Assembly (NCBI GenBank): GCA_038209745.1
Contig: JBBQXJ010000020.1
Span: forward strand, 1 to 60,280
Reading direction: 5' to 3'
From: Verrucomicrobiota bacterium
GTDB lineage: Bacteria; Verrucomicrobiota; Verrucomicrobiia; Limisphaerales; CANJSG01
Length of the DNA: 60,280 nucleotides
The notes under the pieces were generated by a model. It did no database searches, had not been told where the DNA came from, and saw only the letters and a list, made by a program, of their open reading frames with translations. Of the stretch, positions 9,027-60,280 are shown in pieces. Positions within the stretch are counted from its first letter, which is position 1. Every line of letters begins with the position of its first letter. A program made the translations under genes and the position numbers.

Positions 9027-9066
9027 GCGGACTCGCCGGATTGGATTTGTTCGAACACTAAAGTCT

Positions 9067-10032: not shown

Positions 10033-10094
10033 GAATTGGTCGAAATCCACCCGAGAATCTGGCCGACACGAAACGGTATTAACCGGGTTTTCCA

Positions 10095-10123
10095 TTGACC
10101 CCCCAGATGTATTTCTGTAACCC
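10095..10123 (+). promoter_or_regulatory. Possible sigma70 promoter for the pilus-like operon
   Basis: TTGACC-17 bp-TAACCC, about 80 bp upstream of pilM; weak -10 match. Confidence 0.35.
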
Positions 10124-10204
10124 AACCCGAACTTCCTCGGAACGTGACTCGCAACCCAGTTGTGGATTCGTGTGTGAGGCGACGTATTGCAACCCTAACA
10201 ACGG

Positions 10205-44418: not shown

Positions 44419-44485
44419 TTGACCAAAGTGGGGCTAAAGGGGTTAAGTTGTGGCGTTATGGGGCCGTTAGGGGAAGTAGATGGGG
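44419..44485 (+). promoter_or_regulatory. dcw promoter region with proximal MraZ-box-like G-run repeats
   Basis: TTGACC at 44419, then GTGGGG/AGGGG/TGTGG/ATGGGG/TAGGGG/ATGGGG at about 10-bp intervals up to the mraZ start. Confidence 0.65.
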
Positions 44486-44496
44486 CTTCATTGGTT

Positions 44497-44952
44497 ATGT
44501 CGGACGCGCCTAAATCTGAAAAAATCTTCAACTCTACTTTCCCGATGAAAGTGGATGAGAAGCGGCGCGTGCAGATCCCCGCCAAGTGGCGACCGGACGA
44601 GACGGGGGCGGAAGTGACGATTGTGCCTTGGGAGACAGCTCACGGGATGAGCCTCCGGGTTTTCCCGCAGGCGCAGTTCCTGAAGATGGTCGAGAAGATC
44701 GAGTCGATGCCGGAAGGGTCGGTGGAGCGCGATGAGCTCATGCGCAAGGTGGGCCGGAATTCCGAGCAGGTCACGATCGACACTGTCGGTCGGATTACCC
44801 TGCCCGACGGGATGCTCAAGGCGGCGGGACTGTCAACCCAGGCAGTTTTGGTCGGAGTGGTAAGGGTGTTTGAAATTTGGAACCCGGATCGGTTCGCGGC
44901 CTCTGAAGCCAGCACGGCGCTGGGGCCCGCGAACTACCGGTTCATCGGATGA
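44497..44952 (+). CDS. mraZ: Division/cell-wall cluster transcriptional repressor MraZ
   Basis: Two DxxxR motifs (VDEKRRVQIPAKWR, IDTVGRITLP), LVGV...FEIW. Confidence 0.9.
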   Translation: MSDAPKSEKIFNSTFPMKVDEKRRVQIPAKWRPDETGAEVTIVPWETAHGMSLRVFPQAQFLKMVEKIESMPEGSVERDELMRKVGRNSEQVTIDTVGRITLPDGMLKAAGLSTQAVLVGVVRVFEIWNPDRFAASEASTALGPANYRFIG

Positions 44953-44959
44953 GGTGCGC

Positions 44960-45632: not shown

Positions 45633-46538
45633 ATGCTTGTGGAAGTGCTGTCGGCGCTCCGGCCGCAGGACGGCGGGGCCTACGTCGACGGGACGTTGGG
45701 TGGGGCTGGGCATGCGGCAGCCATGTTGGAAGCGAGTCGGCCGACGGGACGGCTGTATGGGTCCGATCGCGATGGCGCCGCAGTCGCAGCGGCGACGGAT
45801 CGATTGGCTGAAAGATTTCCGGCCCGGTTCGAAGTGCGGCGGGCGCGCTTCTCCGAACTGGCCGACTGGGTGCCGCACGGAAGTTGCGACGGAGTGCTGT
45901 TGGATCTCGGCGTGAGTTCGCCGCAGCTCGATCGCGCCGAACGCGGTTTCAGTTTCCAGGCAGATGGGCCGCTCGACATGCGGATGGACGACCGGGATCC
46001 GGTCTCCGCAGCGGACCTGGTCAATGACCTGCCGGCCGATGAGCTGGCGACGATTTTCTGGAAGTTCGGCGATGAGCGCGAGTCGCGGCGTTTTGCGCGC
46101 GCCATCGAGCAGGATCGGCAGACGCGGAAGTTCCGGACGACCCGGGATTTGGCCGGCTTGATCGAGAGGCTCTCGCCGCGCGCCGGGAAGAAGGCCCACC
46201 CGGCCACGAAGGTGTTCCAGGCGTTGCGGATCGCGGTGAACGACGAACTGGGTGAAGTCGAACGGGGCTTGGAAGGCGCGCTGAAGATTTTGAAGCCGGG
46301 CGGCCGGCTGGCGGTGATCACGTTCCACTCGCTGGAAGACCGCTTGGTGAAACTGTTCGGGCAGCGGCTGGCGCGCGACTACGACGCGCCGGGCGATGTG
46401 GACGTTCCCGAACTGAGAGTCTCGCGGCCGCCGATGGTGCGGCTGGTGCAGCGTAAACCGGTGTTGGCCGGTGAAGCGGAAGTGGCGGCGAATCCCCGGG
46501 CGCGCAGCGCGCAGCTCCGGGTCATCGAGAAACTGTGA
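45633..46538 (+). CDS. rsmH: 16S rRNA m4C1402 methyltransferase (possible 5' frameshift)
   Basis: DGTLGGAGH, DLGVSSPQLD...RGFSF..DGPLDMRMD, HPATKVFQALRIAVN.EL, ITFHSLEDR, NPRARSA. Confidence 0.95.
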   Translation: MLVEVLSALRPQDGGAYVDGTLGGAGHAAAMLEASRPTGRLYGSDRDGAAVAAATDRLAERFPARFEVRRARFSELADWVPHGSCDGVLLDLGVSSPQLDRAERGFSFQADGPLDMRMDDRDPVSAADLVNDLPADELATIFWKFGDERESRRFARAIEQDRQTRKFRTTRDLAGLIERLSPRAGKKAHPATKVFQALRIAVNDELGEVERGLEGALKILKPGGRLAVITFHSLEDRLVKLFGQRLARDYDAPGDVDVPELRVSRPPMVRLVQRKPVLAGEAEVAANPRARSAQLRVIEKL

Positions 46539-46539
46539 C

Positions 46540-46929
46540 ATGGCAAAGAACCGAAAAACCCAGAGCGATACGGTGCGTTTCAGCGCCGTGGCGCGCGTGC
46601 TTCTGCTCTGCGTGTTCTTTGGCGGATCCGCCATCGGCTACGTCTGGCAGCAGGGCCAGATCATGAAGCTGAACGTCCGGCGCAAAGCCCTCGAAACCGT
46701 GTTGGGCGACCTGCAGGTGCAGAACCGCCGGCGAAACGACCAGTTTGAGAGCCAGTTGTTGCCGAAAGCTTTGGAGGACCGCGTCCGGGGCATGAACCTC
46801 GGACTCGCTCCGCACAACCCGGCCCAGGTCGTCCGACTGGCGGAGCCTGCGGCCGGTATGCCGGCCGCTATGATGGGCGGGCAGAAGACGCCCGATCCAC
46901 GTATCACGGCTTCGGCCGAACTTCCGTGA
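46540..46929 (+). CDS. ftsL: FtsL-like cell division protein
   Basis: Basic N-terminus, one TM, coiled coil; located between rsmH and the PBP. Confidence 0.6.
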   Translation: MAKNRKTQSDTVRFSAVARVLLLCVFFGGSAIGYVWQQGQIMKLNVRRKALETVLGDLQVQNRRRNDQFESQLLPKALEDRVRGMNLGLAPHNPAQVVRLAEPAAGMPAAMMGGQKTPDPRITASAELP

Positions 46930-47002: not shown

Positions 47003-48892
47003 GTGAAACCGCAACACCAGTCCACCCAGCGCATCGCGGTTTTCTCCGCGCTGATGATCGGTGGCCTGGTGCTCCTGATGGGACGCCTCGTCTATCTCCA
47101 GGTCTTCCGTCATGAGCCTTTGGCCGAGCGGGCCGAGTCGCAGGTCCGCCGGGTCGTGCAGCGCCAACCGATGCGCGGAGAAATCCGCGATATCCGAGGC
47201 AATCCCATCGCCATCTCCCTGCCGGCCAAAACCGTCGCGGTTGATCCTGTCGCCCTCAACGGCCGGCACCTGGAGGTGGCGAAGATCCTTGCTCCCCTTC
47301 TGCGGATCGACGAACCAGCCCTCGCCGAAAAGCTCACGCCCCGTATCCTGAAGACTGTCGATGGGACAAATTACTACGACCTCTACGTCGTGCTGAAACG
47401 CAAGGTGCCGCTCGACGAGTGCCAGAAGATTTCAGAGGCGATGACGGCGCTCGCCCCCATCTACAGCCATGCCGAGCTCCTCGCGATGCCGCGCAAGACC
47501 CGGAACAAGTTGAATGGCGAATACCAGCAGCTGCGTTTCCGGTCCCTCATCTTCGACGCCGACCAGATCCGGCAGTATCCGGGCAAGAGCCTTGCCTCCC
47601 AGCTCATCGGAGCCACCGCCGCCAATCGGGAGCTGACGGGTCTGATGGGATTGGAACTCCTCTTCAACACCCGATTGCTCGGCGTCTCCGGTTGGCTCCG
47701 GTCCGAACACGACAGCCATCGCCGCGAGCTGAGCCAATATCGCGACCAGGAAGTGGAGGCCCGCCCTGGTGACAACCTGGTCCTGACCATCGATTCCGGC
47801 GTCCAATACATTCTCGAAACCGAGATGGCCAAGCAGATGGTCGAGGTGAAGGCCAAGAGCATCACCGGCATCGTGATCCGCCCCAAGACCGGCGAGATCC
47901 TCGCGATGGCGACGCATCCCACCTTCGATCCGAACGACCTCGACCACAGCTCCCGGGATGCGCTGCGGCCCCGCGCGATCACCGACCAGTATGAACCCGG
48001 CTCAACCTTCAAGGCCGTGACGGTGTCCGCCGCCTTGAACGAGCACAAGGTCGGCCTCGAGGACAAGATCTTCTGTGAGAACGGTGCGTTCACCTACCAC
48101 GGACGCACCCTCCACGACTCGCACGGGCACGCCTCGTTGACGGTCGAGGAGATCATCGAAAAATCCTCCAACATCGGCGCCGCCAAGATCGGTCTCATGC
48201 TCGGGGACGATCTGCTTCTGAAGTATGTCGACTCCTTCGGCTTTGGAAACCGGACCGGAATCACCTTTCCGGCCGAGGCCTCCGGCACCGTCAACCGTCC
48301 GGGCAGCCGCTATTGGAGCGGGCTCAGCATCGTCCAGATTCCCATGGGGCACGGCGTGGCGGTGACTCCCCTGCAGATGGCGATGGCGATGGGGGCGATC
48401 GCCAATGGGGGCAACCTCATGCAGCCGATCCTCGTGGACCGCATCGAGGACGAAAAGGGCGAGGTCATCGTTCGCACTCCACGACGCGTCGTCCGGCAGG
48501 TGATCGCCCCGGAGACCGCCCTTCAGATGATCCAGGCGCTGAAGACCCCGCTATTGGCGGGTGGCACGGCCAAGGGGGCGCGGGTGGACGGTTTCACGGT
48601 GGCCGGCAAGACCGGCACCGCGCAGAAGATCAAAATCGGCGGCGGCTATTCGTCCACCGCCTTCGTTTCGTCGTTCATCGGCTTCCTGCCGGCGGACGAT
48701 CCGGAACTGCTCATCGCCATCGTCGTCGACGAGCCCGCGTTCGATCCGGTGCACAAGTTCCATCAGGGCGGCAAGGCCGCGGCGCCCGTCTTCAAGGCCG
48801 TGGCTGAACGGGCCGCGAACTATCTCAACATCAAACCCGACCTGCAGACCAACAACCTGATCTCGCCGGTCGTCGCCATCGGCAACAACTGA
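47003..48892 (+). CDS. ftsI: Class B penicillin-binding protein (FtsI/PBP3)
   Basis: RGEIRDIRG, RQYP, GLE, EPGSTFK (SxxK), KSSN (SxN), AGKTGTAQK. Confidence 0.93.
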   Translation: MKPQHQSTQRIAVFSALMIGGLVLLMGRLVYLQVFRHEPLAERAESQVRRVVQRQPMRGEIRDIRGNPIAISLPAKTVAVDPVALNGRHLEVAKILAPLLRIDEPALAEKLTPRILKTVDGTNYYDLYVVLKRKVPLDECQKISEAMTALAPIYSHAELLAMPRKTRNKLNGEYQQLRFRSLIFDADQIRQYPGKSLASQLIGATAANRELTGLMGLELLFNTRLLGVSGWLRSEHDSHRRELSQYRDQEVEARPGDNLVLTIDSGVQYILETEMAKQMVEVKAKSITGIVIRPKTGEILAMATHPTFDPNDLDHSSRDALRPRAITDQYEPGSTFKAVTVSAALNEHKVGLEDKIFCENGAFTYHGRTLHDSHGHASLTVEEIIEKSSNIGAAKIGLMLGDDLLLKYVDSFGFGNRTGITFPAEASGTVNRPGSRYWSGLSIVQIPMGHGVAVTPLQMAMAMGAIANGGNLMQPILVDRIEDEKGEVIVRTPRRVVRQVIAPETALQMIQALKTPLLAGGTAKGARVDGFTVAGKTGTAQKIKIGGGYSSTAFVSSFIGFLPADDPELLIAIVVDEPAFDPVHKFHQGGKAAAPVFKAVAERAANYLNIKPDLQTNNLISPVVAIGNN

Positions 48893-48893
48893 C

Positions 48894-50120
48894 ATGTTGC
48901 TCCGCCACATCATCACCGCGCTCTCGCCGACCTCGATCCAAGGTTCGTTGAGCCAGACGATCACCGCTCTGGCGACGGACACCCGCCGCGTCGTCCCGGG
49001 GTCCCTCTTCATCGCGACCAATCTCGATACCGAGGCCGGCTTCGAGCGGGCCAACGAGGCGGTGAACCGCGGCGCCTCGGCCGTGGTGTGCCGGGATGGA
49101 GACTTCGTGACCGCCAGAGTGACCCGGATCCGGGTGGCCGATCCGCGCGAGGCGGTGGCGAGGGCGGCGGCGGCGTTCTATTCCCACCCGGCCGGGAAGC
49201 TGGAAATCGTCCGGTTGAAGTCCGGATCCGACACGGCCGTCTCAGCTTTCCAGGCCCGCCAGTTGCTGGAGCGCGCGGGTCAAAAGGTAGGGTTGATCAG
49301 CTCGCTCGGCTGCTGGGTCGGCGATCGGTTCGTGCCCCCGCCGCCGAGCGGTTTCGACGGCATCGAGGTGCAGCGGCTTTTGGCCGACATGGTCAAGGCA
49401 GGCTGCCGCGTTTGCGTGGTGGAAGGACGGATCGCTTCGCCCGTGATGATCTTCGGTTCCTTTGCCGCGCGTTGGCGCGAAGTCGACAGTCTGGCCGAAG
49501 CCGCGGGCGAGCCGGTCGGTGCGACCCCTTTGCCCGGGGGCTGCGATGCTCCGAAGCGGCGTGTCTCCCCTTCGGCGGTTCCCGGCTGCGCGGAGCGGAT
49601 CCAGTTGGGCCAGGACTTCTCGGTGGTGGTGGACCGGAGCGCGACCTCGGCCCGCCTGGCGGCCGTGTTGAACATCATGCGCCAACAGGCGGAGGGGCGC
49701 CTGTTCCTCGTTTTCGGTGCCAAGGCATGCCACGCGCCCGAAATGCGGCATGCGTTCGGACTGGTTGCCGCCAAGCTGGCCGACGCGGTCTGGATCACGA
49801 CCGACGATCCGGAAAAGGTGCGGCCGGAGTTTCTTGCGGCCGACCTGGGGTCTGTCTGGAAGGCTGTCAGAGAGGATGGACTGACCTTCATTTCCGATCG
49901 GGCGGCTGCGATCCATGCGGCGTTGGGCGAGTCTCGGGCCGGAGACGCGGTGCTCATTGCCGGCAAGGGTGCGGACACGGTCCAGCGCCTCGGCGACACC
50001 ATCGTGCCGTTCGACGATCGCGGATGCGTGCGTCTGTTCCTTGAGCGGGAACAGGACCGCAACAACTGGATGCTGGATCGATTGCTGCCGACCGGTTCCG
50101 CAGAAATGGCGCGAGCCTGA
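48894..50120 (+). CDS. murE: Degenerate MurE-like protein (probable pseudoenzyme)
   Basis: MurE position and scaffold (DTRRV.PGSLF.A, VPG..E, LFLVFG, DR..AI, VLIAGKG, FDDR), but P-loop, EVSSH, DHLD, DYAH and DNPR are lost and there is an internal deletion. Confidence 0.75.
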   Translation: MLLRHIITALSPTSIQGSLSQTITALATDTRRVVPGSLFIATNLDTEAGFERANEAVNRGASAVVCRDGDFVTARVTRIRVADPREAVARAAAAFYSHPAGKLEIVRLKSGSDTAVSAFQARQLLERAGQKVGLISSLGCWVGDRFVPPPPSGFDGIEVQRLLADMVKAGCRVCVVEGRIASPVMIFGSFAARWREVDSLAEAAGEPVGATPLPGGCDAPKRRVSPSAVPGCAERIQLGQDFSVVVDRSATSARLAAVLNIMRQQAEGRLFLVFGAKACHAPEMRHAFGLVAAKLADAVWITTDDPEKVRPEFLAADLGSVWKAVREDGLTFISDRAAAIHAALGESRAGDAVLIAGKGADTVQRLGDTIVPFDDRGCVRLFLEREQDRNNWMLDRLLPTGSAEMARA

Positions 50121-50124
50121 ATCC

Positions 50125-51531
50125 ATGGAATTGTTTTCTCTCCAATCCATCGCCAAAGCCTGTTCCGGCCGCCTCGTGGGTGGTCCGGGCAGGCTGACCG
50201 TGGAACGGGTCTGCACCGATTCGCGGGCGGTGCGGAAGGGGGATCTCTTTGTGGCGCTCAAAGGAGACCGATTCGACGGACACGAATACCTGGAGACGGC
50301 GGCGGAACTCGGAGCCGCAGCCGTGTTGGCGGAAGAGCGGGCGTCGGCAAGTTTTCCAAAAAACTGCCCGATTGTCGCCGTGGCCGACACCCGGCGCGCG
50401 CTGGCCGATCTTGCGCGGGACCACCGGAAGAAATTCTCCATTCCTGTCGTCGCGGTCTGCGGTTCCAACGGGAAGACCAGCACCAAGGAATTGATCGCCT
50501 CGGTGTTGCGGGAGGTCGGCCCGGTGTTGGCCAGCGAAGCCAGCTTCAACAACGACATCGGTGTTCCACTGACGCTGCTACGGCTCACGCCCGAACACAC
50601 GGTCGCGGTGGTCGAGGCGGGCACCAACCACCCGGGCGAACTTGCACCATTGTTGGACCTGGTGCGTCCCAGATTTGGCGTCTTGACCAGCATCGGCCGC
50701 GAGCATCTGGAGTTTTTCCACGACCTCGAAGGCGTGGTCGAGGAGGAGGGGGCCATCGCCGAGGTGTTGCCCGCTGACGGACGTTTGATCGTCAACGCGC
50801 AGACCCCGGGACTGGGCGAGATTCTTGTGCGGACCCACGCGCCCGTGGTGATGGTAGGAATCGACGGACGGTTTGATTTTTCGGCTAGCCACGTGGAGGT
50901 CTCGGAGGCGGGAACCCGCTTCCGATTGAGTTGCCGTCGACCCGAGCTGGACGGGGACTACGCGGTCCAGCTCCTCGGTCGGCACCATGTGGCCAACGCC
51001 TTGCTTGCAGTGGCCGTAGGTGCCGAACTGGGGCTGAACCGGGAACAAATTGCCCGTGGGCTGGCGGTCTGTGCACCGGCGAAGATGCGGATGCAATGGA
51101 ATGACGTGGCCGGGGTGCGGGTGCTGAACGACGCCTACAACGCGAATGCGGACTCGATGATCGCCGCTTTGCGGACACTGGCGGACCTGCCCGCAGGCGG
51201 GCGCCGCGTGGCCGTGCTTGGCGAGATGGGCGAACTCGGCGACCACACCGTCGCAGCCCATGAGGAGGTCGGTCGTCGCGCCGCCAATGCGGGGCTGGAT
51301 TGGCTCTTGGCCGTCGGGCAAAACGCCGGGCTCACGGTGGCGGCGGCGAAGCGAGAGGGATTTCGGAAGCGGTTGGACGCGGTCGCGGACATGGGTGCCG
51401 CGTCGTCGCTCCTGGGCAGGGAACTGAAGCCGGGAGACGTCGTGCTCTTGAAAGCATCTCGCGCGGCGCAACTTGAAAGGGTCTTGCAGGGGCTGCTGGA
51501 GCGGTCTGTCAAGACGGGGACAACGGCATGA
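50125..51531 (+). CDS. murF: UDP-MurNAc-tripeptide--D-Ala-D-Ala ligase
   Basis: TDSR, GDRFDGH, CGSNGKTSTKE, NNDIGVP.TL, EAGTNHPGE, NDAYNAN..SM, LKASR. Confidence 0.95.
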   Translation: MELFSLQSIAKACSGRLVGGPGRLTVERVCTDSRAVRKGDLFVALKGDRFDGHEYLETAAELGAAAVLAEERASASFPKNCPIVAVADTRRALADLARDHRKKFSIPVVAVCGSNGKTSTKELIASVLREVGPVLASEASFNNDIGVPLTLLRLTPEHTVAVVEAGTNHPGELAPLLDLVRPRFGVLTSIGREHLEFFHDLEGVVEEEGAIAEVLPADGRLIVNAQTPGLGEILVRTHAPVVMVGIDGRFDFSASHVEVSEAGTRFRLSCRRPELDGDYAVQLLGRHHVANALLAVAVGAELGLNREQIARGLAVCAPAKMRMQWNDVAGVRVLNDAYNANADSMIAALRTLADLPAGGRRVAVLGEMGELGDHTVAAHEEVGRRAANAGLDWLLAVGQNAGLTVAAAKREGFRKRLDAVADMGAASSLLGRELKPGDVVLLKASRAAQLERVLQGLLERSVKTGTTA

Positions 51532-51707
51532 AGGCTCACGAAAGGAAGATGGACGGAATGCAACTGCGGTTGGCCGGGCCGGGGTTGATCGCGCTCCTGG
51601 GGTCGGAGGACGGGCGCGCCTTGGCGCAGGTCAAGCGCCGGCTGGCGTGGTTGCGCGGCGGTTCCAGGGATCTGTTCCCGAAGTGCGTCGGACCAAGACA
51701 CGACTGA
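51528..51707 (+). CDS. Putative small protein (59 aa) coupled between murF and mraY
   Basis: ATG overlaps the murF stop (ATGA) and the stop lies 3 bp before the mraY ATG; MKAHERKMDGMQLRLAGPGLIALLG...VGPRHD. Confidence 0.4.
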   Translation: MKAHERKMDGMQLRLAGPGLIALLGSEDGRALAQVKRRLAWLRGGSRDLFPKCVGPRHD

Positions 51708-51710
51708 CGA

Positions 51711-52859
51711 ATGCTCTACTACCTGAGCCAGGCGATCATGGAGGCCGCGAAAGGCACGGAGTGGGAGTCCTCCGTGAGCTTTCTGCGGCTCTTCAACTAT
51801 ATCACCTTCCGGGCGGGCGCGGCCATGTTGACGGCCCTCGCGTTGAGCTGGTGGCTGGGGCCGTATTTCATCGCTTGGCTGAAGGAGCTGAAGTTTGGCC
51901 AGGATTACGCCGACAAGGCCGAGGAAGGTGGCGACATCAAGGCCCGCATCCTCAGCAAGAAAGGCACTCCCACCATGGGCGGCGTGATGATCGTGCTGAT
52001 CCTGGATCTCTCCGCGTTGCTCTGGACGCAATGGAACACGCAGATGCAGCTGACGATGCTGCTGGTGCTGGTCCTGGCCGGGCTGGGTTTCTACGACGAC
52101 TACGCGAAGATCACCAAGCAGGACAACAAGGGCGCAAAGTCGCACGTGAAACTTTGGGTGCAGGTCATCCTGGCCGGATTTGTCGCGTTCTATCTTTGGC
52201 AGGTGAAGCCGGACCTGGTGTCCGAAGTGATCGTGCCGTTCCACAAATACCCGGTGCTGACGGGGACGGCAGGGCTCATCGGCGGGGTGATGGTGATCCT
52301 GTTGACGATCGTCGGCAGCTCCAACGCCGTGAACCTGACGGATGGGTTGGACGGGCTCGCCATTGGATGCACCATCATCGTGTCCGGGGTGTTCCTTGTC
52401 CTCACCTACATCGCCGGCAACGCGAAGATGGCGGAATACCTACAGGTGCCCCACGTGGTCGGGTCCGGTGAACTTTCGGTTTTTTGTGCCGCCATGGTGG
52501 GTGCGGGACTTGGATTCATGTGGTACAACTGCCATCCTGCGAAACTGTTCATGGGTGACACCGGCTCGCTCGCGCTCGGGGGGATCCTCGGGATCATCGC
52601 GGTGCTGATCCACCAGCCGTTCGTGCTGATGATCGCCGGCGGGGTTTTCGTCATGGAAGCCGTGTCGGTGATGCTCCAGACCTCGTGGTTTCGCTGGACG
52701 CGCCGGCGGACGGGGACGGGCCGGAGGCTCTTCCTGATGGCGCCGATCCACCATCATTTTGAAAAAAAGGGCTGGTATGAATCGCAGGTCGTGACGCGGT
52801 TCTACATTCTCTGCGTGGTTTGCGCCGTCGTGGCGCTGGGAAGCTTGAAGATTCGTTGA
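51711..52859 (+). CDS. mraY: Phospho-N-acetylmuramoyl-pentapeptide transferase
   Basis: KKGTPTMGG, GFYDDY.K, NAVNLTDGLDGLA, FMGDTGSLALG, MAPIHHHFE. Confidence 0.97.
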   Translation: MLYYLSQAIMEAAKGTEWESSVSFLRLFNYITFRAGAAMLTALALSWWLGPYFIAWLKELKFGQDYADKAEEGGDIKARILSKKGTPTMGGVMIVLILDLSALLWTQWNTQMQLTMLLVLVLAGLGFYDDYAKITKQDNKGAKSHVKLWVQVILAGFVAFYLWQVKPDLVSEVIVPFHKYPVLTGTAGLIGGVMVILLTIVGSSNAVNLTDGLDGLAIGCTIIVSGVFLVLTYIAGNAKMAEYLQVPHVVGSGELSVFCAAMVGAGLGFMWYNCHPAKLFMGDTGSLALGGILGIIAVLIHQPFVLMIAGGVFVMEAVSVMLQTSWFRWTRRRTGTGRRLFLMAPIHHHFEKKGWYESQVVTRFYILCVVCAVVALGSLKIR

Positions 52860-52860
52860 A

Positions 52861-54309
52861 ATGGCCTCGCTGAAAGACAAACGGGTGCTGGTGATCGGGC
52901 TGCATGAAGCGGGCCGAGCCGTGGTGCGCCTGCTGCTGGCGAACGGCGCGGGCGTAGAGGGCGTGGACGGCCATGATGCCGTGGAGTCCCGCGAAGCGTC
53001 GGTGCCGCTGCAGAAGAAGGGGGCCCGGCTCCACTTTGGTGCAACCCGATGCCCGGACGGACCGTTCCACTTCGTTGTCGTCTGTCCTGAAGTCAAGGGC
53101 GAGGCGGCTTTTGTCGCGGCGGCCGAGGCGAAGGGGTGGCCCGTGATCAGCGAGCTGGAGTTCGCCTACGAACAGATGTTCTGCCTGAACATCGCCGTCA
53201 CCGGATCCAACGGGAAGTCCACCACGGCTCGGCTCGTGGCCAAAATCCTCGGAGACGGCGGGCGTCTGACCCGCGTCGTCGGAGGCCCTGAAGCGCCCCT
53301 TTGCGAAGTCGTCGGAGAAACGCGCGATCTCGATTACCTGACCGTGGAGGCTCTCGCGCCGCAGTTGGAACGGACCGTCTATTTCAGACCCTCCGTCGCG
53401 GTGCTGACGAATATTGTGCCGGACCATCTGGACCGTTACGCCAGCCTCCCGGACTACGTGCGGGCCATGGCCCAGATCTTCGCACGGCAGCAGTCGTTCG
53501 ACTGGGCGATCGTCCAAAGCGAGGCGCTCGCGCACTTGAGAACGCTCGGTCTCCCTGTTCCCGGCAAGGTCATCACCTTCAGTGCCAGGACCCAGTTGGC
53601 GGATCTTTTCCTCGACCGCTCCCTGATCGTCAGCCGGATCGAAGGCTGGGAAGGACCGCTTTTCGACATGGATCGCTCGAAACTGCGCGGTCCCCACAAC
53701 GCCGAAAACATCATGGCGGCCTTGGCGGTGGGGCGGGTGCTGCGGATGCCGATCAAGGAAATGGCGGCGGCTCTGGAAGCGTATGAGCCAGCGCCGCACC
53801 GGTTTGAGCTGGTGGCCGAGGTGGACGGTGTTCGTTATATCAATGACTCCCGGGCCACGAATCTCCAGGCTTTGACCTGCGCGATCGAGTCCGTGCCGGG
53901 TGGATCCGGCGGGCAGCCAAACGTCTGGCTGATTGCCGGCGGGCGGGACAAGGGTCTCCCGTTCCACGACGCGGGGCCGCTGATTTCCAAGCGGGTGAAG
54001 GGTGCTTTTTTGCTGGGTGAAGCTCGCGAAAAGCTTCGTGCGGCATGGAGTCTGTTTACACCTTGCAGCACCATGGACACGCTGTTAGAAGCCGTTGGGC
54101 AAGCGGCACGCAGCGCCGTTCCGGGCGATGTGGTGCTCCTTTCACCGGCCTGTTCGAGCTTCGACCAGTTCCAGAACTACCAGCAACGGGGCGACGTGTT
54201 TCGTCGGGCGGTGACCGCCCTGACGCCATCGCCCGGTGGCCACCCGGCGATGGTGGGCCCAGACAATCCGAAATTCGCCACCAGTTTAACCACCGACACC
54301 GGGGCTTGA
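52861..54309 (+). CDS. murD: MurD-like ligase with divergent UDP-MurNAc-L-Ala-binding motifs
   Basis: VTGSNGKSTT, PDHLDRY, HNAEN, HRFE, NDSRATN, GG.DKG, LLSPACSSFDQF.NY..RG. Confidence 0.88.
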   Translation: MASLKDKRVLVIGLHEAGRAVVRLLLANGAGVEGVDGHDAVESREASVPLQKKGARLHFGATRCPDGPFHFVVVCPEVKGEAAFVAAAEAKGWPVISELEFAYEQMFCLNIAVTGSNGKSTTARLVAKILGDGGRLTRVVGGPEAPLCEVVGETRDLDYLTVEALAPQLERTVYFRPSVAVLTNIVPDHLDRYASLPDYVRAMAQIFARQQSFDWAIVQSEALAHLRTLGLPVPGKVITFSARTQLADLFLDRSLIVSRIEGWEGPLFDMDRSKLRGPHNAENIMAALAVGRVLRMPIKEMAAALEAYEPAPHRFELVAEVDGVRYINDSRATNLQALTCAIESVPGGSGGQPNVWLIAGGRDKGLPFHDAGPLISKRVKGAFLLGEAREKLRAAWSLFTPCSTMDTLLEAVGQAARSAVPGDVVLLSPACSSFDQFQNYQQRGDVFRRAVTALTPSPGGHPAMVGPDNPKFATSLTTDTGA

Positions 54310-54367
54310 GGCAACCTGGACGCCGGAGACAAACCACCTCACCGACCGCGACAAAACAGCAAACGCC

Positions 54368-55300
54368 ATGAGCACACCGAGCCCCCTTGTTCCCCAGGGA
54401 TCGATCCAGGACGCGCCGAAGGGCCGTCGAAACCTCCCCGTCCTCGTCTTCTCCGTCATCGGCTTCCACGTCGCCGTCCTCGGCGTCGCGCTGATGATCG
54501 GGTGCAAGCCGGAGACGACCAAGACCGCCGATCCATTGGCCCAATTCTCCGAGACGAACGCGGCTGCGCCCCTCGTCACCGACACCTCGGCGACCAAAGG
54601 CAACGCGGCCCCGATCACGAATCCCTACGAACTTCCGCCGGCCCCGATGCCGGCCCCGGGAACTGCGCTCGGTGGAACGCCTGCGCCGGCCCCCGGCTAT
54701 GGAACTGTCCCGCCTCCGATCGGCGCAACTCCTGTTCCTGCTCCGACGCCGACGCCGACGCCGACGCCTGGAGGCTATGGTGCTCCCGGATCTTTCGTCG
54801 ATCCCCTCACGCCGGCCGTTGAACCGGCTTCGTCCTCGACAACCGAGCACAAGGTCAAGAGCGGCGACACGTTCGGCAAGATGGCCAAGGAGTATGGCGT
54901 GTCTTCCAAAGCGATCATTTCCGCCAATCCAAATCTCGACCCCCGTCGGTTGAAGGTCGGTCAGAGCGTCCTCATTCCGGCCCCCTCGAAGGCTACGGGG
55001 GCTCCGTCCGCTCCGTCCGCCTCGGCTCGTTCCGCTGGCTCCGCCACGACTGGAACCTACGTGGTCAAGTCGGGTGACAGCCTGACCCGGATCGCCGCGA
55101 AGCACGGAACTTCCGTCAAAGCCCTCAAGAGCCTCAATGGACTCAAAACCGACCGTGTCAACGTCGGCCAGAAGCTGAAAGTGCCGGTGAAGAGCGCTCC
55201 CGAGCCGGCCCCGGCTTCGGCCCCGGCCCCGGAGCTTCCGATCAGTCCTTCGTTCGGAACTTCTCCATCGACCGTCCCTGTGCCACAGCCGGTCCGTTGA
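54368..55300 (+). CDS. Membrane-anchored protein with two LysM domains and a Pro/Thr-rich linker
   Basis: TM/lipobox-like LMIGC; HKVKSGDTF.KMAK...LKVGQ and YVVKSGDSL.RIA...VGQKLKVP; PTPTPTP linker. Confidence 0.88.
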   Translation: MSTPSPLVPQGSIQDAPKGRRNLPVLVFSVIGFHVAVLGVALMIGCKPETTKTADPLAQFSETNAAAPLVTDTSATKGNAAPITNPYELPPAPMPAPGTALGGTPAPAPGYGTVPPPIGATPVPAPTPTPTPTPGGYGAPGSFVDPLTPAVEPASSSTTEHKVKSGDTFGKMAKEYGVSSKAIISANPNLDPRRLKVGQSVLIPAPSKATGAPSAPSASARSAGSATTGTYVVKSGDSLTRIAAKHGTSVKALKSLNGLKTDRVNVGQKLKVPVKSAPEPAPASAPAPELPISPSFGTSPSTVPVPQPVR

Positions 55301-56463
55301 TCGTCCGCCCGAATTCGTCGACCCCTGCCGCCATGCGCCTTCCCATCACCATTCTGGTGTTCTGCGTGGGAGCGCTCTTGGCGCTGGGGTTGACGATTCT
55401 CTTCAGCGCCGAGCTCGGGGACACGGCGCAGTATTTCAGGAACCAGCTTCTCTGGTGCTGCATTGCTCTGCCAGCGGCATTGGTCGCCGCCGCCGTGCCC
55501 TACCAGCAGCTTCGCCGCTGGTGGTGGTTGGTGCTGCTGCTCTCCGTCGCGCTGCTGGTCCTCGTCTTTCTCAAGGGCAAATCGATCAACGGCGCCCGCC
55601 GTTGGCTCGGCCCGAAAGGGGGTCCCTATCTCCAACCTTCCGAGTTCGCCAAGATCGCTCTCATCATCGCGCTCGCCTGGTATGGGGAACGGTTCCGCGA
55701 CCGGATGCGGACCTTTCTGCACGGGGTATTGATCCCCGGAGCGGGAGTCGGCCTGGTGCTGGGACTCGTCTTCCTTGAACCCGACGTCGGCACCACCTTG
55801 TTGATGGCGTGCGTGGCCGCGACGTTGCTTCTTACCGCAGGAGCCCGTCTTTCCTTTTTCCTGCCTCCCGTTGTGGTCGGGCTCGTCGGCGTCGGGCTTT
55901 TCATCGCCCGCGACCCCATGCGCTCGGACCGCATCCACTCGTGGCTCAACCTCGAAGAGACGCGGCTGAACGTCGGCCACCAGGCTTTTCAGGCGCAGGT
56001 CGCCATCGGTGCGGGCGGCATCACGGGTCGAGGACTGGGCGAAGGTCGGCAGAAGCTTGGCTGGGTGCCGGAGCATCATACCGACTTCATTTTCTCCGTC
56101 GTCGCGGAGGAGTTGGGATTGGTCGGAGGGGGGCTGGTTCTTCTGGCCTACATCGGCATCATCATCACCGGGACGTGGATCGCCCTGAACGCGGCCGACG
56201 TGTTCGGATCACTGATCGCGATGGGAGTGACCACGCTGATCGGCGTCCAGACGTTCATCAACGTGGGGGTCGTCACCGGCACGCTTCCAAACAAGGGGTT
56301 GGCGTTGCCGTTCATGAGCTATGGCGGCTCCAGCCTGCTCTTCATGCTGACGGCCGTGGGGCTTTTGCTGAACGTGGCCCGGGAAGCGCGGTCGTCGGGA
56401 CGGCGACACCCGAACACCGGTTCAAACCCCTTTTCCGACGAGGCTCTTTCCGAAGCTGTCTGA
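55297..56463 (+). CDS. ftsW: SEDS peptidoglycan glycosyltransferase FtsW
   Basis: NGARRWL, QPSEFAK, EPDVGT, G.GLG.G.QK...PEHHTDFIF, PNKG..LPFMSYGGSS; alternative ATG at 55333. Confidence 0.95.
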   Translation: MIVRPNSSTPAAMRLPITILVFCVGALLALGLTILFSAELGDTAQYFRNQLLWCCIALPAALVAAAVPYQQLRRWWWLVLLLSVALLVLVFLKGKSINGARRWLGPKGGPYLQPSEFAKIALIIALAWYGERFRDRMRTFLHGVLIPGAGVGLVLGLVFLEPDVGTTLLMACVAATLLLTAGARLSFFLPPVVVGLVGVGLFIARDPMRSDRIHSWLNLEETRLNVGHQAFQAQVAIGAGGITGRGLGEGRQKLGWVPEHHTDFIFSVVAEELGLVGGGLVLLAYIGIIITGTWIALNAADVFGSLIAMGVTTLIGVQTFINVGVVTGTLPNKGLALPFMSYGGSSLLFMLTAVGLLLNVAREARSSGRRHPNTGSNPFSDEALSEAV

Positions 56464-57659
56464 TGCGAGACTCCAACCCCAAGCCGATGGTGGCCATCGC
56501 CTGCGGTGGCACGGGCGGCCATCTCTTTCCCGGGGTGGCCGTGGCCGACCAGCTCCTGCTGCGTGGTGCGGACGTGACGCTGCTTGTCTCGCCGAAAGAG
56601 GTGGACCAACAGGTCGTCGGCACGCTTCGGGGTGTCGAGGTGGTCACGCTCCCGGCGGTCGGTCTGACCCGCGGGCGCTATCTTGCTTTCCTCTCCGGCT
56701 TCATCCGCTCCTACCGTCGTTCCCATGCCCTCTTCAGACGCATCCAGCCGGCCGCCGCCCTCGCGATGGGCGGCTTCACCAGTGCGGCTCCGGTTTTTGC
56801 GGCCCATCGCCGCGGCGTGAGGACCTGCCTGCACGAGTCGAACACCATTCCCGGGCGCGCCAATCGCTGGCTCGCCCATTGGGTCGACGATGCGTTCGTC
56901 TACTTCGACGGCGCGGCCCGGCGTTTGAAGGGCCCCCGCACCCATGTCGTCGGAATGCCCGTCCGGCCTCAGTTCGAAGGCATGGACGCCGAGTCCGCCC
57001 GGATCTCGCTCGGCCTCCGTCCGCAACGTCCGACGCTCCTGGTCATGGGTGGAAGCCAAGGCGCCTCCGGCATCAACCAGCTCGTCACCGGAGCTTTGCC
57101 GCTATTGAAAGAGCGTTTGTCCGACTGGCAGTTCATCCACCTGAGCGGTGTCGCCGACGTGGAATCGGTTCGCCAATGTTATGCCCGTCTCGGATTGACC
57201 GCCGTGGTCCGGCCCTTTCTCAGCGAGATGGAATACGCCCTCGGCGCGGCCACTCTCTGCGTCAGCCGTTCGGGGGCGTCCTCCCTGGCAGAACTCGCCG
57301 CCATGAACGTGCCGGCAGTGCTGATTCCCTATCCGACCGCGGCCGACGACCACCAGCGGGCCAACGCCCGTGCCTTCGTGGACACCGGCGCCGCTTGGCT
57401 GCTGGAACAGGGGAAGACCTCGCCGAAGGAACTGGCCGACCTGCTGTCGAAACTGGCCGCCGACGATGCGCTGCTCGGCTCGACGAAAGTGGCGCTCGAT
57501 CGCTGGCATTTTCCGGGCGCAGCCGAAGCGATCGCCGATTTCATCGCCCGCGAAGCCGGCATCAAACCGCGTGACTGGACGAAGCCGCAGCCAATGAGCC
57601 GCGAGGATTCCGGACACGGTAGATCATCGAATTCAAGGGAGCTGTGTCTCGCTCCGTGA
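56463..57659 (+). CDS. murG: Undecaprenyldiphospho-muramoylpentapeptide GlcNAc transferase
   Basis: GGTGGHLFPG, GGF.S, HESN..PG.AN, G.PVR, GGSQGA, RSGASS..E, HQ..NA. Confidence 0.95.
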   Translation: MRDSNPKPMVAIACGGTGGHLFPGVAVADQLLLRGADVTLLVSPKEVDQQVVGTLRGVEVVTLPAVGLTRGRYLAFLSGFIRSYRRSHALFRRIQPAAALAMGGFTSAAPVFAAHRRGVRTCLHESNTIPGRANRWLAHWVDDAFVYFDGAARRLKGPRTHVVGMPVRPQFEGMDAESARISLGLRPQRPTLLVMGGSQGASGINQLVTGALPLLKERLSDWQFIHLSGVADVESVRQCYARLGLTAVVRPFLSEMEYALGAATLCVSRSGASSLAELAAMNVPAVLIPYPTAADDHQRANARAFVDTGAAWLLEQGKTSPKELADLLSKLAADDALLGSTKVALDRWHFPGAAEAIADFIAREAGIKPRDWTKPQPMSREDSGHGRSSNSRELCLAP

Positions 57660-57661
57660 AC

Positions 57662-58606
57662 ATGACGACACTCGATCCAACGCTGAACTGCGACCGTTTG
57701 GCCACCCTCGCGCACGGGCTGCGGGCGCTGTTGACGCCGGGAACGGAGATCAGGACGCGTGAACCGCTCGCCAAACGGACCACGCTGCGCGTCGGGGGGG
57801 CGGCCGATCTCTTCGTCGAGCCTCAGACCGAAGGGGATCTTGGGCTTTTGCTCGGTTGGAGCGCGGACCATGGACTGCCCGTGACCGTCCTGGGCCGGGG
57901 CTCGAATCTGGTGGTCCGAGACGGCGGCATCCGCGGCGTCGTCCTGTCTTTGGCGCACGAGGGGCTGAGCCGGATCGAGGTGGACGGAACGCGGCTTCGC
58001 TGCGGCGCCGGTGCCCGGCTGAAAGCCGTCTCCAACGAGGCGCGGAAGGCGGGTTTGACCGGATTGGAGTTTCTCGAAGGCATCCCTGGCAGCGTCGGTG
58101 GCGCGTTGCGGATGAATGCCGGCGCGATGGGTTCGGAGACTTTCAAGTCGGTCGAGAGACTGCGGTTCATGGGCCCCGCCGGTGAGGTGTCCGACTTGGC
58201 CGTGTCCGAAGTGGCGGTCGAATACCGCTGCTGTCCGCTGTTGAAGACGCACATCGCGCTCGGCGCCGTTTTTGTCGGCCAACCTGCGACGCCCGAAGAG
58301 ATTCGGGCGCGCATGGACCAGTTCAACACCAAGCGCTGGACGACTCAGCCGCCCCAGCCCAGCGCCGGTTGCACCTTCAAGAACGCTCCGGCCCTCCCCA
58401 CTGGAAAACTGGTGGACGAGCTCGGACTCAAGGGCACGCACATCGGCGGCGCCATGGTGTCCGGTCTGCACGGCAATTTCATCGTGAACCTCGGGAACGC
58501 CACCGCGCGCGACGTGCTGGCGCTGATCGAGAAGGTCAAACAGTGCGCGCTGGACGAGCGCGGCATCGAGCTCCAGACCGAGGTCGAAATTCTGGGAGAA
58601 GACTGA
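57662..58606 (+). CDS. murB: UDP-N-acetylenolpyruvoylglucosamine reductase
   Basis: TTLRVGG.A, GRGSNL, GLEFLEGIPGSVGGALRMNAGA, SAGCTFKN, HGNFIVN, ELQTEV. Confidence 0.96.
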   Translation: MTTLDPTLNCDRLATLAHGLRALLTPGTEIRTREPLAKRTTLRVGGAADLFVEPQTEGDLGLLLGWSADHGLPVTVLGRGSNLVVRDGGIRGVVLSLAHEGLSRIEVDGTRLRCGAGARLKAVSNEARKAGLTGLEFLEGIPGSVGGALRMNAGAMGSETFKSVERLRFMGPAGEVSDLAVSEVAVEYRCCPLLKTHIALGAVFVGQPATPEEIRARMDQFNTKRWTTQPPQPSAGCTFKNAPALPTGKLVDELGLKGTHIGGAMVSGLHGNFIVNLGNATARDVLALIEKVKQCALDERGIELQTEVEILGED

Positions 58607-58607
58607 G

Positions 58608-59534
58608 ATGAGCGTGCTCAACATCGCGGTGTTCCTCGGTGGCCCGTCCGCCGAGCGCGACGTCTCGCTCCGGACCGGCCGGGCGGTGGCGCAAGCGTTG
58701 ACGTCTCTCGGCCATCGGGTGACGGAGATCGATCCCATGCCTGGCCGCCTGGAACTGCCGGCCGGGACGGACGTTGTCTTCCTCGCGTTGCACGGGACCT
58801 ATGGCGAGGACGGACTCGTGCAGCACGAGCTCGACGCGCTCGGCGTTCCCTACACGGGCTGCGATGCCGTCGCCAGCCGCATCGCCTTCGACAAGGTCCT
58901 GACCAAGCTCGCCTGTCTGCGGGACGGCGTGCCGACGGCGCCCTTCGCCGTGCTCCACGCCGGCACCCGTTCTTGGCCCGCCGGAATGCGACCTCCCGTG
59001 GTGATGAAGCCCGTCCGGCAGGGCTCCAGCGTGGGGTTGTATTTCCTGGACGATGAATCCGGCATGGCCGCCGCCTTGGACGGCGTGTTGAAGCACGACA
59101 CCGAGGCGTTGATGGAAGCCAGGATCGTCGGGCGCGAGACCACCGTCGGGATCGTCGACGGCAAGGCGCTCCCCGTCGTCGAAGTGCGGCCGCGACAGGG
59201 GAACTACGACTACACGAACAAGTACACCTCCGGCGCGACCGAATACCTCTGCCCTGCGCCGTTCGACGAAGCGACCACCCGCCGCATCCAAGCCGCCGGT
59301 CTCGGTGCGTTCCGCGCCATCGGAGGCCGCGACTATGCGCGGGTGGACGTGATGGTGACCCCCGATGGTGAACCGGTCGTCCTCGAAGTGAACACCTTGC
59401 CCGGCATGACCGAGACCAGCCTGTTGCCCAAGGCCGCCGTCGCCGCCGGCATCGGCTACCCGGATCTTTGCCAGCGGATGGTGAGCCTCGCCCTGCGTCG
59501 CAAGTCGGAATCCCCAGCTACCCTTGCCCGATGA
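58608..59534 (+). CDS. ddl: D-alanine--D-alanine ligase
   Basis: GGPSAERDVS, ALHG.YGEDG, KP...GSSVG, YDY.NKY, RVD, EVNTLPGMT..SL.P. Confidence 0.96.
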   Translation: MSVLNIAVFLGGPSAERDVSLRTGRAVAQALTSLGHRVTEIDPMPGRLELPAGTDVVFLALHGTYGEDGLVQHELDALGVPYTGCDAVASRIAFDKVLTKLACLRDGVPTAPFAVLHAGTRSWPAGMRPPVVMKPVRQGSSVGLYFLDDESGMAAALDGVLKHDTEALMEARIVGRETTVGIVDGKALPVVEVRPRQGNYDYTNKYTSGATEYLCPAPFDEATTRRIQAAGLGAFRAIGGRDYARVDVMVTPDGEPVVLEVNTLPGMTETSLLPKAAVAAGIGYPDLCQRMVSLALRRKSESPATLAR

Positions 59535-60280
59535 GCCTTCTGAAACGAACCAAACGAAAAAACCGGCGCGTGCCCCGCGACGTGAACCTCGATGTCCGGC
59601 TGAGCACCGACCAGGTGCGCTCGCGGCGGCTCCGCGTCACCGGCCGGGTGTTGAGCATCGTGTTCGCCTTCGCCGCCGTGGTCTTGACCCTCGCGTATGG
59701 CGGGAAAGTCGGCTTCAATTATTTTCTCTTCGAGAACCCCGCCTACACGCTGAAGCGCGTCCTGGTCACCACCGACGGCGCCATTTCCACCGAACTGCTG
59801 CGGGCGTGGATGAACTTCAAGCCCTCGCAGAACCTTTTCGCCCTCGACCTCGCACGGGTGAAGCGCGACCTCGAACTCATTCCCTGGGTCAAGCGCGCGG
59901 AGGTGGAGCGCATCCTGCCCGATACCGTGAAGGTGCGGGTGCTGGAGCGTGAGCCCGTCGCCCAGTTGGTCACCGCGGCCGCGATGCCCGACGGAAGCAT
60001 CCAACGCCTCGTCTACCACGTGGACGCCACCGGTTGGGTCATGCCCGAGCTGGACAACGCGCGGCGCGCTTTGCCACTGGCCGTGGCGGAAGTGTATCCC
60101 GTCATCACCGGTCTGCCGCTGACCGATGCGAGGGTCGGCCGCGTCCTCGATCAGCCCTCCGTCAAGGCCGCGCTCGATCTGATCCGCGAATTCGACATCT
60201 CGCCGATGGCCGGAATGGTCGAGCTCGCCGAGATCGATGTCAGCCGACCCGGAATTCTGCGCGTGCTGACCACCCAGCGG
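59531..60280 (+). CDS. ftsQ: Cell division protein FtsQ/DivIB (runs off the window end)
   Basis: Open frame from ATG 59531 (not in the ORF track because it has no stop in the window): MSLLKRTKRKNRR, TM, POTRA-like NLFALDL.RV..DLE.IPWVK.AEVER.LPDT..VRV.ER.P. Confidence 0.88.
   Translation, partial: MSLLKRTKRKNRRVPRDVNLDVRLSTDQVRSRRLRVTGRVLSIVFAFAAVVLTLAYGGKVGFNYFLFENPAYTLKRVLVTTDGAISTELLRAWMNFKPSQNLFALDLARVKRDLELIPWVKRAEVERILPDTVKVRVLEREPVAQLVTAAAMPDGSIQRLVYHVDATGWVMPELDNARRALPLAVAEVYPVITGLPLTDARVGRVLDQPSVKAALDLIREFDISPMAGMVELAEIDVSRPGILRVLTTQR

Follow-up and report, generated by a model that had tools for sequence, protein, structure and literature searches.

Peptidoglycan synthesis in most species of a verrucomicrobial order probably proceeds without MurC, MurD and MurE

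How does a bacterium complete its peptidoglycan precursor when the genes for the first three peptide-adding steps on uridine diphosphate-N-acetylmuramic acid (UDP-MurNAc) are missing or degraded? This question is raised by a 60,280-nucleotide stretch of DNA from a member of the Verrucomicrobiota (GenBank assembly GCA_038209745.1, contig JBBQXJ010000020.1; hereafter the window), which carries a dcw cluster (genes of cell division and of the cell wall) with no murC, a degenerate murE and an altered murD among intact neighbours. In textbooks, MurC, MurD and MurE count as essential, and they are targets for antibiotics; the product of MurC is the substrate of MurD, and the product of MurD is the substrate of MurE. 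Mpl, by comparison, is regarded as a dispensable recycling enzyme. An earlier reading of the DNA, made from the sequence alone (the sequence-only reading), had noted this combination and proposed a rewired pathway; our analysis confirms the observation and supports the interpretation. We consider it probable that most species of the order (Pedosphaerales by the label of one submitter) build peptidoglycan without MurC, MurD and MurE, that this state evolved at least eight times, and that some lineages keep MurD and MurE as non-ligase pseudoenzymes in the division and wall machinery.

The dcw cluster occupies the final 16 kb of the window on the + strand, in the order mraZ, rsmH, an open reading frame (ORF) at the ftsL position, ftsI, a murE-like gene, murF, mraY, murD, a LysM gene, ftsW, murG, murB, ddl and ftsQ. 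Its features, in window positions, are as follows.

44419..44952, + strand: mraZ, first gene of the cluster (Pfam MraZ, 53 bits).
45633..46538, + strand: rsmH, also called mraW (Pfam Methyltransf_5, 330 bits).
46471..46929, + strand: ORF at the ftsL position, without a Pfam match, with a homologue at the same position in the dcw loci of relatives.
47003..48892, + strand: ftsI, encoding a PBP3-type transpeptidase (Pfam Transpeptidase, 243 bits, and PBP_dimer).
48894..50120, + strand: MurE-derived protein of 408 amino acids (aa), termed MurE', with N- and C-terminal Mur domains, half a central domain without a P-loop, and a disordered linker.
50125..51531, + strand: murF, intact, starting with ATG at 50125 (TIGR01143, 402.6 bits; cut-off 288.6).
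51711..52859, + strand: mraY, intact (Pfam), with 127 of 132 invariant columns kept.
52861..54309, + strand: murD, with altered UDP-MurNAc-L-alanine (UDP-MurNAc-L-Ala)-binding and catalytic positions that are conserved within the genus (TIGR01087, 310.2 bits).
54368..55300, + strand: LysM-domain protein (two Pfam LysM domains).
55297..56463, + strand: ftsW (Pfam FTSW_RODA_SPOVE, 314 bits).
56463..57659, + strand: murG, starting with ATG at 56463 (TIGR01133, 254.6 bits, a narrow pass over the cut-off of 250.25).
57644..57662, no strand: murG–murB junction, the empty murC slot, without a MurC match.
57644..58606, + strand: murB, stand-alone (NF010480, 320.5 bits, above the cut-off).
58608..59534, + strand: ddl (NF002378, 322.5 bits; cut-off 243).
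59468..60280, + strand: ftsQ, running off the window (Pfam POTRA_1).

The murG stop codon (57657–57659) overlaps or abuts the start of murB, which lies at GTG 57644 or ATG 57662. Relatives with a full pathway carry murC exactly in this slot, mostly fused to murB. A tblastn search of the region with the MurC of a relative as query gave no match at E ≤ 1e-5. murG does run straight into murB, as the sequence-only reading had stated.

The murE-like gene retains an open frame that has lost the marks of a ligase. Only the N- and C-terminal Mur domains of MurE' were detected with Pfam, without Mur_ligase_M (PF08245), and the score of 172.4 bits on the MurE model TIGR01085 falls in two separate stretches and under the cut-off of 257.3. 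Aligned to solved MurE structures, MurE' lacks ~100 residues of the central ATPase domain, and its P-loop site reads KSGSDTA where solved MurE have GTSGKTT (canonical GT(S/N)GKTT). DDPE replaces the DNPR of canonical relatives, the motif that sets the diaminopimelate specificity of MurE. Among 130 columns that are invariant in 16 canonical MurE proteins of the order, 58 are retained and 23 are deleted. The earlier statement that the frame is open and the catalytic motifs lost thus holds for the P-loop, the central domain and DNPR alike.

In an AlphaFold model of MurE' (pLDDT 73.5), the N- and C-terminal domains are folded and half of the central domain is present; where the other half is missing, residues 206–239 are disordered. 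Among known structures, the model most closely matches the plant protein PAP11 (E 5.9e-27, TMq 0.71), with MurE enzymes next, and PAP11 is also among the sequence matches. In a search of 5.8 billion proteins, the truncated family comprised only 9 clusters, 391–410 aa in length and with the C-terminal Pfam domain only; the nearest relatives are ~510-aa forms with the dead P-loop GCPARI. Having no P-loop and only half of the ATPase domain, MurE' is not an adenosine triphosphate (ATP)-dependent ligase. It is probably non-catalytic, and its features suggest a pseudoenzyme that is probably kept for a non-ligase role, for example as a scaffold.

Full-length (~510 aa) MurE homologues with altered motifs were also observed (P0015, P0017, P0018, P0019 and the G019 locus L047). 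Their P-loop reads GCPARI or GTRGRTT, LELPPE or LEIDPR replaces MEVSSH, and the DNPR position reads DNPG or DNPR. As a second class of MurE pseudoenzyme, these ~510-aa homologues stand midway between intact and truncated forms.

MurD is full length, matching TIGR01087 over model positions 1–440 and well above its cut-off of 211.95, and its P-loop, GSNGKST, is intact. It retains 78 of the 95 columns that are invariant in 13 canonical MurD proteins of the order; in a leave-one-out control, each canonical MurD keeps 91–99% of the invariant columns. The N-terminal loop GLGxSG has become GLHEAG, SPG has become CPE and GNIG has become GGPE; further, E.SSFQL reads EALAPQL and NDSK reads NDSR. We take GLGxSG, SPG and GNIG to be UDP-MurNAc-L-Ala contact residues. 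Met203 stands where the solved structures 3lk7 and 8dp2, as well as 13 of 13 canonical relatives, have the Lys of the Y-x-R-A-K motif; by motif reading, this is presumably the position of the carbamylated Lys198 of E. coli MurD. A passage of PMC3060825 calls the carbamylated Lys of E. coli MurD essential. The substitutions are clustered at positions that bind the first substrate rather than scattered, with the P-loop and the C-terminal domain kept. Such substitutions are seen again in independent lineages, and in other lineages the Mg-binding Glu is gone. The altered substrate motifs noted earlier are therefore borne out: 17 of the 95 invariant residues are lost, with changes in GLGxSG, SPG, GNIG, E.SSFQL and NDSK and at the Lys.

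Both relic proteins are under strong purifying selection in the genus. Ratios of non-synonymous to synonymous substitution (dN/dS; Nei–Gojobori) between congeners are 0.05–0.12 for MurE' and 0.03–0.16 for MurD, compared with 0.09–0.16 for MurF and 0.03–0.08 for MraY; values above 1 for FtsW and FtsQ of G001 were artefacts of a wrong high-scoring segment pair and were disregarded. MurE' and MurD are thus as constrained as the essential MurF and MraY, and are probably pseudoenzymes rather than pseudogenes. MurD is probably a retained pseudoenzyme with a non-ligase role, although a new catalytic role that uses its preserved ATP and D-glutamate (D-Glu) sites is conceivable.

The neighbouring enzymes are canonical, in line with the earlier description of MurB, MurF, Ddl, MraY, MurG, FtsW and FtsI. 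Measured against canonical relatives of the order, MurF keeps 70 of 71 invariant columns, MraY 127 of 132 and MurB 84 of 88. The identities of MurG, Ddl and MurB rest on NCBIfam cut-offs, and those of FtsW and FtsI on Pfam matches. A non-standard stem peptide, which had been suggested as one outcome of the damage, is not favoured, because MurF retains 70 of its 71 invariant residues.

The ligase that could bridge the gap is encoded elsewhere in the genome (140 contigs, 4.58 Mb, an estimated 92% complete). A whole-genome search identified only four Mur_ligase_M domains: those of MurF, of MurD and of one gene each on contigs C62 and C107. The C107 gene is FolC (376 bits). The C62 gene is Mpl, with 461.3 bits on TIGR01081 (cut-off 388.7); it is also the best match in the genome to the MurC model TIGR01082, at 306.3 bits and under the cut-off of 335.1. 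It carries the P-loop GTHGKTT and the motifs TAFFDKRSK, EPRSNT and SNGGF. PMC3060825 describes TAFFDKRSK, in the general form (S/T)AFFDKRSK, as a motif that every annotated Mpl shares and that the other Mur ligases lack, and EPRSNT and the SNG residues of the C-terminal domain are listed there as Mpl-specific. The best solved relative is 3hn7, and the Mpl fragments 3eag and 3mvn were also matched. MurA is present, and profile searches of the 92%-complete genome found no second murC or murE. Canonical murC and murE copies elsewhere, in a genome without Mpl, were the result that the sequence-only reading had named as speaking against it; the assembled genome shows the opposite on both counts.

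Across the order loci, Mpl proteins are 54–77% identical, and the signature motif is present in 19 of 20 loci. No partner gene specific to the murC-less state was found among 20 mpl neighbourhoods, and the neighbourhood is not conserved. Separately, a family of ~475 aa adjoins mpl in 7 of the 20 loci (L019, L025, L026 and L028–L031), in murC-less and full-pathway genomes alike.

To place this genome in its order, we compared it with 40 relatives, of which 6 are congeners and 34 come from other families, and mapped the dcw loci of 39 relatives with the window proteins together with canonical MurE and MurC. The dcw gene order is conserved across the order loci, and only murE, murD and murC vary. 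Curated cut-offs are exceeded by murE in 18 of the 41 genomes, by murD in 27, by mpl in 37 and by murC in 12, with further murC fragments where contigs end. Sixteen of the 41 have a full pathway or are consistent with one, with murC between murG and murB in frames of 777–904 aa. Examples of these MurC–MurB frames are L065 (G008), L041 (G011) and L059 (G037); in G018, murC is directly followed by ddl, and murB lies elsewhere. Long frames also occur around murF, of 886 aa in G026 (L052, C44:18732-19052 region) and 962 aa in G030, and may reflect read-through or upstream fusion.

Twenty-four genomes lack murC, and in these murE and murD form a graded series of decay. Only murC is gone in G009 and G019. 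The seven genomes of the present genus combine a truncated murE with murD, and in G013 murD is gone and a remnant of murE is left. murE is absent from G007, G029, G040, G025 and G026, with progressively weaker murD (TIGR01087, 340 down to 141 bits); G010, G016 and G017 retain only a syntenic stub of the MurD C terminus, and G015, G021, G022, G035 and G039 have lost all three genes. G031 was classed as murC-less by whole-genome search, its dcw contig ending at mraY. G033 (87% complete, 600 contigs), with fragments of murC and murD, with MurI and with no MurE found, was left unclassified and outside the tree described below. Catalytic decay is visible even where only murC is missing: the full-length MurE of G019 has the P-loop GTRGRTT, LEIDPR for MEVSSH and 90 of 130 invariant columns, and in the MurD of G009, GHSA stands at the GNIG site and Thr at that of the conserved Lys. 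None of the 41 genomes retains murC without murD or murE.

When eight conserved dcw proteins were used to build a maximum-likelihood tree, the murC-less state came out scattered, requiring 10 changes, at least 8 of which are forced by well-supported branches. A wider set of 301 order members that are ≥90% complete gave the same picture: MurE (E ≤ 1e-50) occurs in 122 genomes and 60 of 137 genera and is lacking in 179, and Mpl (E ≤ 1e-100) occurs in 285, of which 282 exceed the cut-off. These counts extend to the order the earlier proposal that the damaged steps are exactly those that Mpl bypasses. Genome incompleteness is not the explanation, because five MurE-less genomes of 1, 2, 5, 6 and 7 contigs (G505, a single contig, and G355, G530, G571 and G415) have a reduced ligase set. 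Their Mur_ligase_M domains belong to MurF, Mpl and one weak, FolC-like third match, and the single-contig genome has MurF and Mpl only, without the third. The alternative that functional paralogs had moved elsewhere is likewise excluded: the losses occurred in situ, with remnants left behind in 24 of the 40 dcw loci of relatives, all six congeners are alike, and the five near-closed genomes hold no further ligase of this type.

Among 300 high-quality genomes from the remainder of the phylum, 297 have MurE. The three others (G044, G225 and G231) have no MurE at E ≤ 1e-50 and no Mpl at threshold, and may be sporadic cases or search misses. Mpl is found in 87 of 100 genomes from other orders of the class and in none of 200 from other classes. 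Mpl is therefore old and class-wide, whereas the loss of MurC, MurD and MurE is specific to the order.

If Mpl merely substituted for MurC, MurD and MurE would remain indispensable, and their observed erosion and deletion contradict this. As this erosion follows the loss of murC, with Mpl and MurF intact, Mpl would deliver UDP-MurNAc-tripeptide directly; on the simplest reading of the sequences, the peptide branch is entered through Mpl alone. In the mechanism that we propose, the stepwise MurC–MurD–MurE branch would be switched off in this organism: murC has been excised, MurE has shrunk to a protein that lacks an ATP site, and MurD has been stripped of residues that bind UDP-MurNAc-L-Ala and support catalysis. 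Mpl would attach a ready-made tripeptide as the sole entry to UDP-MurNAc-tripeptide, downstream of which MurF, Ddl, MraY, MurG, FtsW and FtsI would act as usual. MurD and MurE' would persist as non-catalytic scaffold or regulatory proteins. The tripeptide would come mainly from salvage of peptidoglycan fragments, both foreign ones and those of the cell itself, set free by a cluster of NamZ, amidase, beta-lactamase-fold protein and LdcA and imported by way of OppA-type binding proteins, and the organism would be auxotrophic for the murein stem peptide. We hold it to be an even call that both parts of this proposal apply, with Mpl as the sole route and its tripeptide derived mainly from salvage.

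The candidate salvage genes lie together on contig C42 (L161) of this genome.

C42 4388-5491, + strand: Amidase_2 protein.
C42 5548-6735, − strand: NamZ exo-beta-N-acetylmuramidase.
C42 6859-7929, + strand: PF00144 beta-lactamase-fold protein.
C42 7943-8917, + strand: LdcA (Peptidase_S66 and S66C, 137 and 135 bits).

Downstream of LdcA lie an ORF with Ig domains (8939-11362) and then the flagellar export genes flhB and flhA and a gene for an SRP54-type GTPase. From their family assignments, the four C42 proteins could convert muropeptides to the tripeptide used by Mpl, the PF00144 protein possibly resembling the B. subtilis amidase AmiE. The genome encodes two Amidase_2 proteins, of which the C42 copy scores 46.6 bits on the AmpD model against 143. 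LdcA is present in 10 of 24 murC-less versus 1 of 16 full-pathway genomes. MurI exceeds its cut-off in none of the murC-less genomes, in 8 of the full-pathway genomes and in the unclassified G033, and the D-amino-acid transaminase Dat was found only in G038 among the compared genomes. A ~215-bit match in the present genome, considered as a Dat-like source of D-Glu, proved to be IlvE. The trends for LdcA and for MurI/Dat run in the expected direction on pairs that are phylogenetically independent. DNA of the window is present in 20 public runs, 19 of sediment metagenomes and one of a soil metagenome, and both habitats are rich in bacterial necromass; no RNA run is listed among those that contain it.

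Several observations weigh against salvage as the main source. LdcA was not found in 14 of the 24 murC-less genomes, including all 6 congeners, and the C42 arrangement was not found beside LdcA in the 10 other genomes examined. The 92%-complete genome gave no match to AmpG (TIGR00901) or AnmK (PF03702), and its two OppA-family proteins (344 and 399 bits) are far under the OppA cut-off of 947; their binding of murein tripeptide is putative. With only 8 independent pairs, neither the LdcA nor the MurI/Dat trend reaches significance (median p 0.125 and 0.25). Seven full-pathway genomes also have no recognised source of D-Glu, and an unrecognised source may therefore exist across the order. The confinement of the losses to this order, despite a class-wide Mpl, implies that something else, possibly a synthetic route, distinguishes it. 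A view of MurD and MurE' as useless relics leaves their essential-like constraint unexplained, and full dependence on external stem peptide would be a heavy demand for sediment and soil organisms with genomes of 4–8 Mb.

These points lead to a tentative alternative, less likely in our judgement, in which Mpl is still the sole entry but the tripeptide is made in the cell by an undescribed route without the UDP-MurNAc carrier. ATP-grasp or other ligases are candidates for such a route, D-Glu could come from an unrecognised racemase or epimerase, and the altered MurD and MurE' might contribute in this genus. At least eight independent losses in a free-living order with large genomes, 179 of 301 without MurE, would fit in-cell synthesis, as would the patchiness of the salvage genes and an order-specific enabling trait, suggested by the class-wide Mpl. 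The strong purifying selection on both relic proteins points the same way, as do the MurD changes, recurrent in independent lineages and placed at first-substrate sites with the P-loop and C-terminal domain spared. Yet no candidate enzyme was found, the genes around mpl are not conserved, and neither this genome nor the five near-closed ones hold an extra Mur-type ligase. MurD is absent or a stub in at least 10 genomes and MurE' occurs in only 9 protein clusters, so that neither is a general solution; MurD has, in addition, lost the conserved Lys and the SSF motif, as other lineages have lost the Mg-binding Glu, and neither MurI nor Dat was found in any of the 24 murC-less genomes.

We regard as improbable a modified stepwise pathway in this genus, in which Mpl adds L-Ala, the altered MurD adds D-Glu, and another enzyme, or MurE' with a partner, adds the third residue. 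In parts of PMC3060825, overexpressed E. coli mpl is described as complementing murC(ts), and P. arcticus Mpl as taking L-Ala, at 0.7 per min compared with 260 per min for the tripeptide. MurD exceeds its equivalog cut-off with P-loop and C-terminal domain kept, its dN/dS is 0.03–0.16, and the loss of its Lys need not be fatal, because the carbamylated Lys is also absent from MurC and Mpl (same source, in part). On the other side, MurE' has neither a P-loop nor half of its ATPase domain, the genome has no other Mur ligase, and the GNIG Asn and the SSF motif are gone from MurD. Mpl, for its part, retains all signature residues of the tripeptide type, and sister lineages whose Mpl is the same, with identities and motif count as given above, do without MurD and MurE altogether. 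It is very improbable that the pattern is an artefact, with functional murC and murE in the unassembled 8% of the genome or a misassembled cluster, as a 140-contig assembly at 92% completeness might allow. The slot for murC holds no gene and murE has degenerated in place, the 6 congeners and 17 further genomes of the 40 compared are in the same state, and it recurs in the single-contig genome and the four of 2–7 contigs. Moreover, independent contigs from other runs (X1, X7 and, for parts, X14) are colinear and gapless over 47003–53060 and 54739–58700, with 28–53 differing letters; since they run across both the truncated murE and the murG–murB junction, neither is an assembly error. Short joints in the read layout (20–41-letter sides, 90% likeness) were set aside as cross-matches from other organisms.

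The proposed bypass by Mpl shares parts with known systems. Recycling in E. coli comprises import by AmpG or MppA–Opp, followed by AmpD, LdcA and Mpl. The present genome resembles it in the Mpl family and its signature residues, in LdcA and Amidase_2, and in a UDP-MurNAc-tripeptide product that feeds MurF; it differs in that AmpG and AnmK were not found and in that, with MurC gone and MurD and MurE disabled, Mpl would be the only and essential route. The E. coli Mpl route is, in a section of PMC3060825, a dispensable side path beside essential MurC, MurD and MurE. A second parallel is with Tannerella forsythia, a MurNAc auxotroph without MurA and MurB that relies on salvage through NamZ and AmgK/MurU. 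There, too, early cytoplasmic steps held to be essential are lost and fragments of the peptidoglycan of other bacteria are relied on, and a NamZ homologue occurs in the present genome. However, T. forsythia scavenges the sugar, whereas in the present case MurA and MurB remain intact and it is the peptide-adding steps that are lost, in large genomes from sediment and soil and with order-wide, repeated loss. For MurE', the closest precedent is plant PAP11 of the plastid-encoded RNA polymerase (PDB 8r6s, 8w9z and 8xzv), also a MurE-derived protein with a non-ligase role. PAP11 is non-catalytic; it is full length and part of a chloroplast transcription complex, whereas MurE' is a bacterial protein of the dcw operon from which half of the central domain is gone.

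Within the phylum, the dcw cluster of Verrucomicrobium spinosum, as covered in part of PMC12283558, has the same gene order and a MurC–MurB fusion, comparable to the 777–904-aa murC–murB frames of full-pathway relatives; the present genome differs in its stand-alone murB, its lack of murC and its degenerate murE and murD. That source reports murA–G of V. spinosum as all essential and, in the same part, calls the dcw genes highly conserved in Verrucomicrobiota. Its main text does not mention Mpl, and its murC row is COG0773. This COG appears to lump Mpl with MurC, which would hide the loss of murC. Full-text literature searches, with supplements outside their scope and subscription journals mostly outside it, found no report of Mpl replacing MurC, MurD and MurE. 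The parts (Mpl, LdcA, NamZ and peptidoglycan recycling) are known; the arrangement is new, with a recycling ligase as the proposed sole and essential route and MurC, MurD and MurE repeatedly discarded in most of an order.

Other features of the window were also observed. Of 40 dcw loci in the order, 37 carry a homologue of the LysM protein at the same place between murD and ftsW, and the remaining 3 end earlier; its gene occurs independently of the murC, murD and murE state and is an order-wide extra member of the cluster. It is possibly an amidase activator or a divisome component. The mraZ ORF as listed encodes 177 aa with a single MraZ domain match at residues 115–164, and a 241-aa ORF (44870–45595) that overlaps it, between mraZ and rsmH, has no family match and may be spurious. 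The rest of the window contains exosortase/exopolysaccharide genes, type IV pilus genes, the nuo operon, queA and, at 21338–24663 on the − strand, a pair of genes, DUF1552 (HXXSHH) and DUF1592/1588/1587/1585/1595, with an N terminus that resembles cytochrome c, typical of Planctomycetes–Verrucomicrobia genomes.

The ‘essential’ core of peptidoglycan synthesis can thus apparently be rewired around Mpl, a large environmental lineage keeping its wall machinery minus three steps. The series of murE and murD forms, from intact through motif-dead, truncated and stub to absent, offers a natural experiment on the transition from enzyme to pseudoenzyme. If the tripeptide is made de novo, an undiscovered biosynthetic pathway would be implied. 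If it is scavenged, these bacteria would be auxotrophic for the murein stem peptide, a kind of auxotrophy for which our literature searches found no report. The growth of abundant uncultured Verrucomicrobiota would then be tied to bacterial necromass, and muropeptides or the tripeptide may aid their cultivation.

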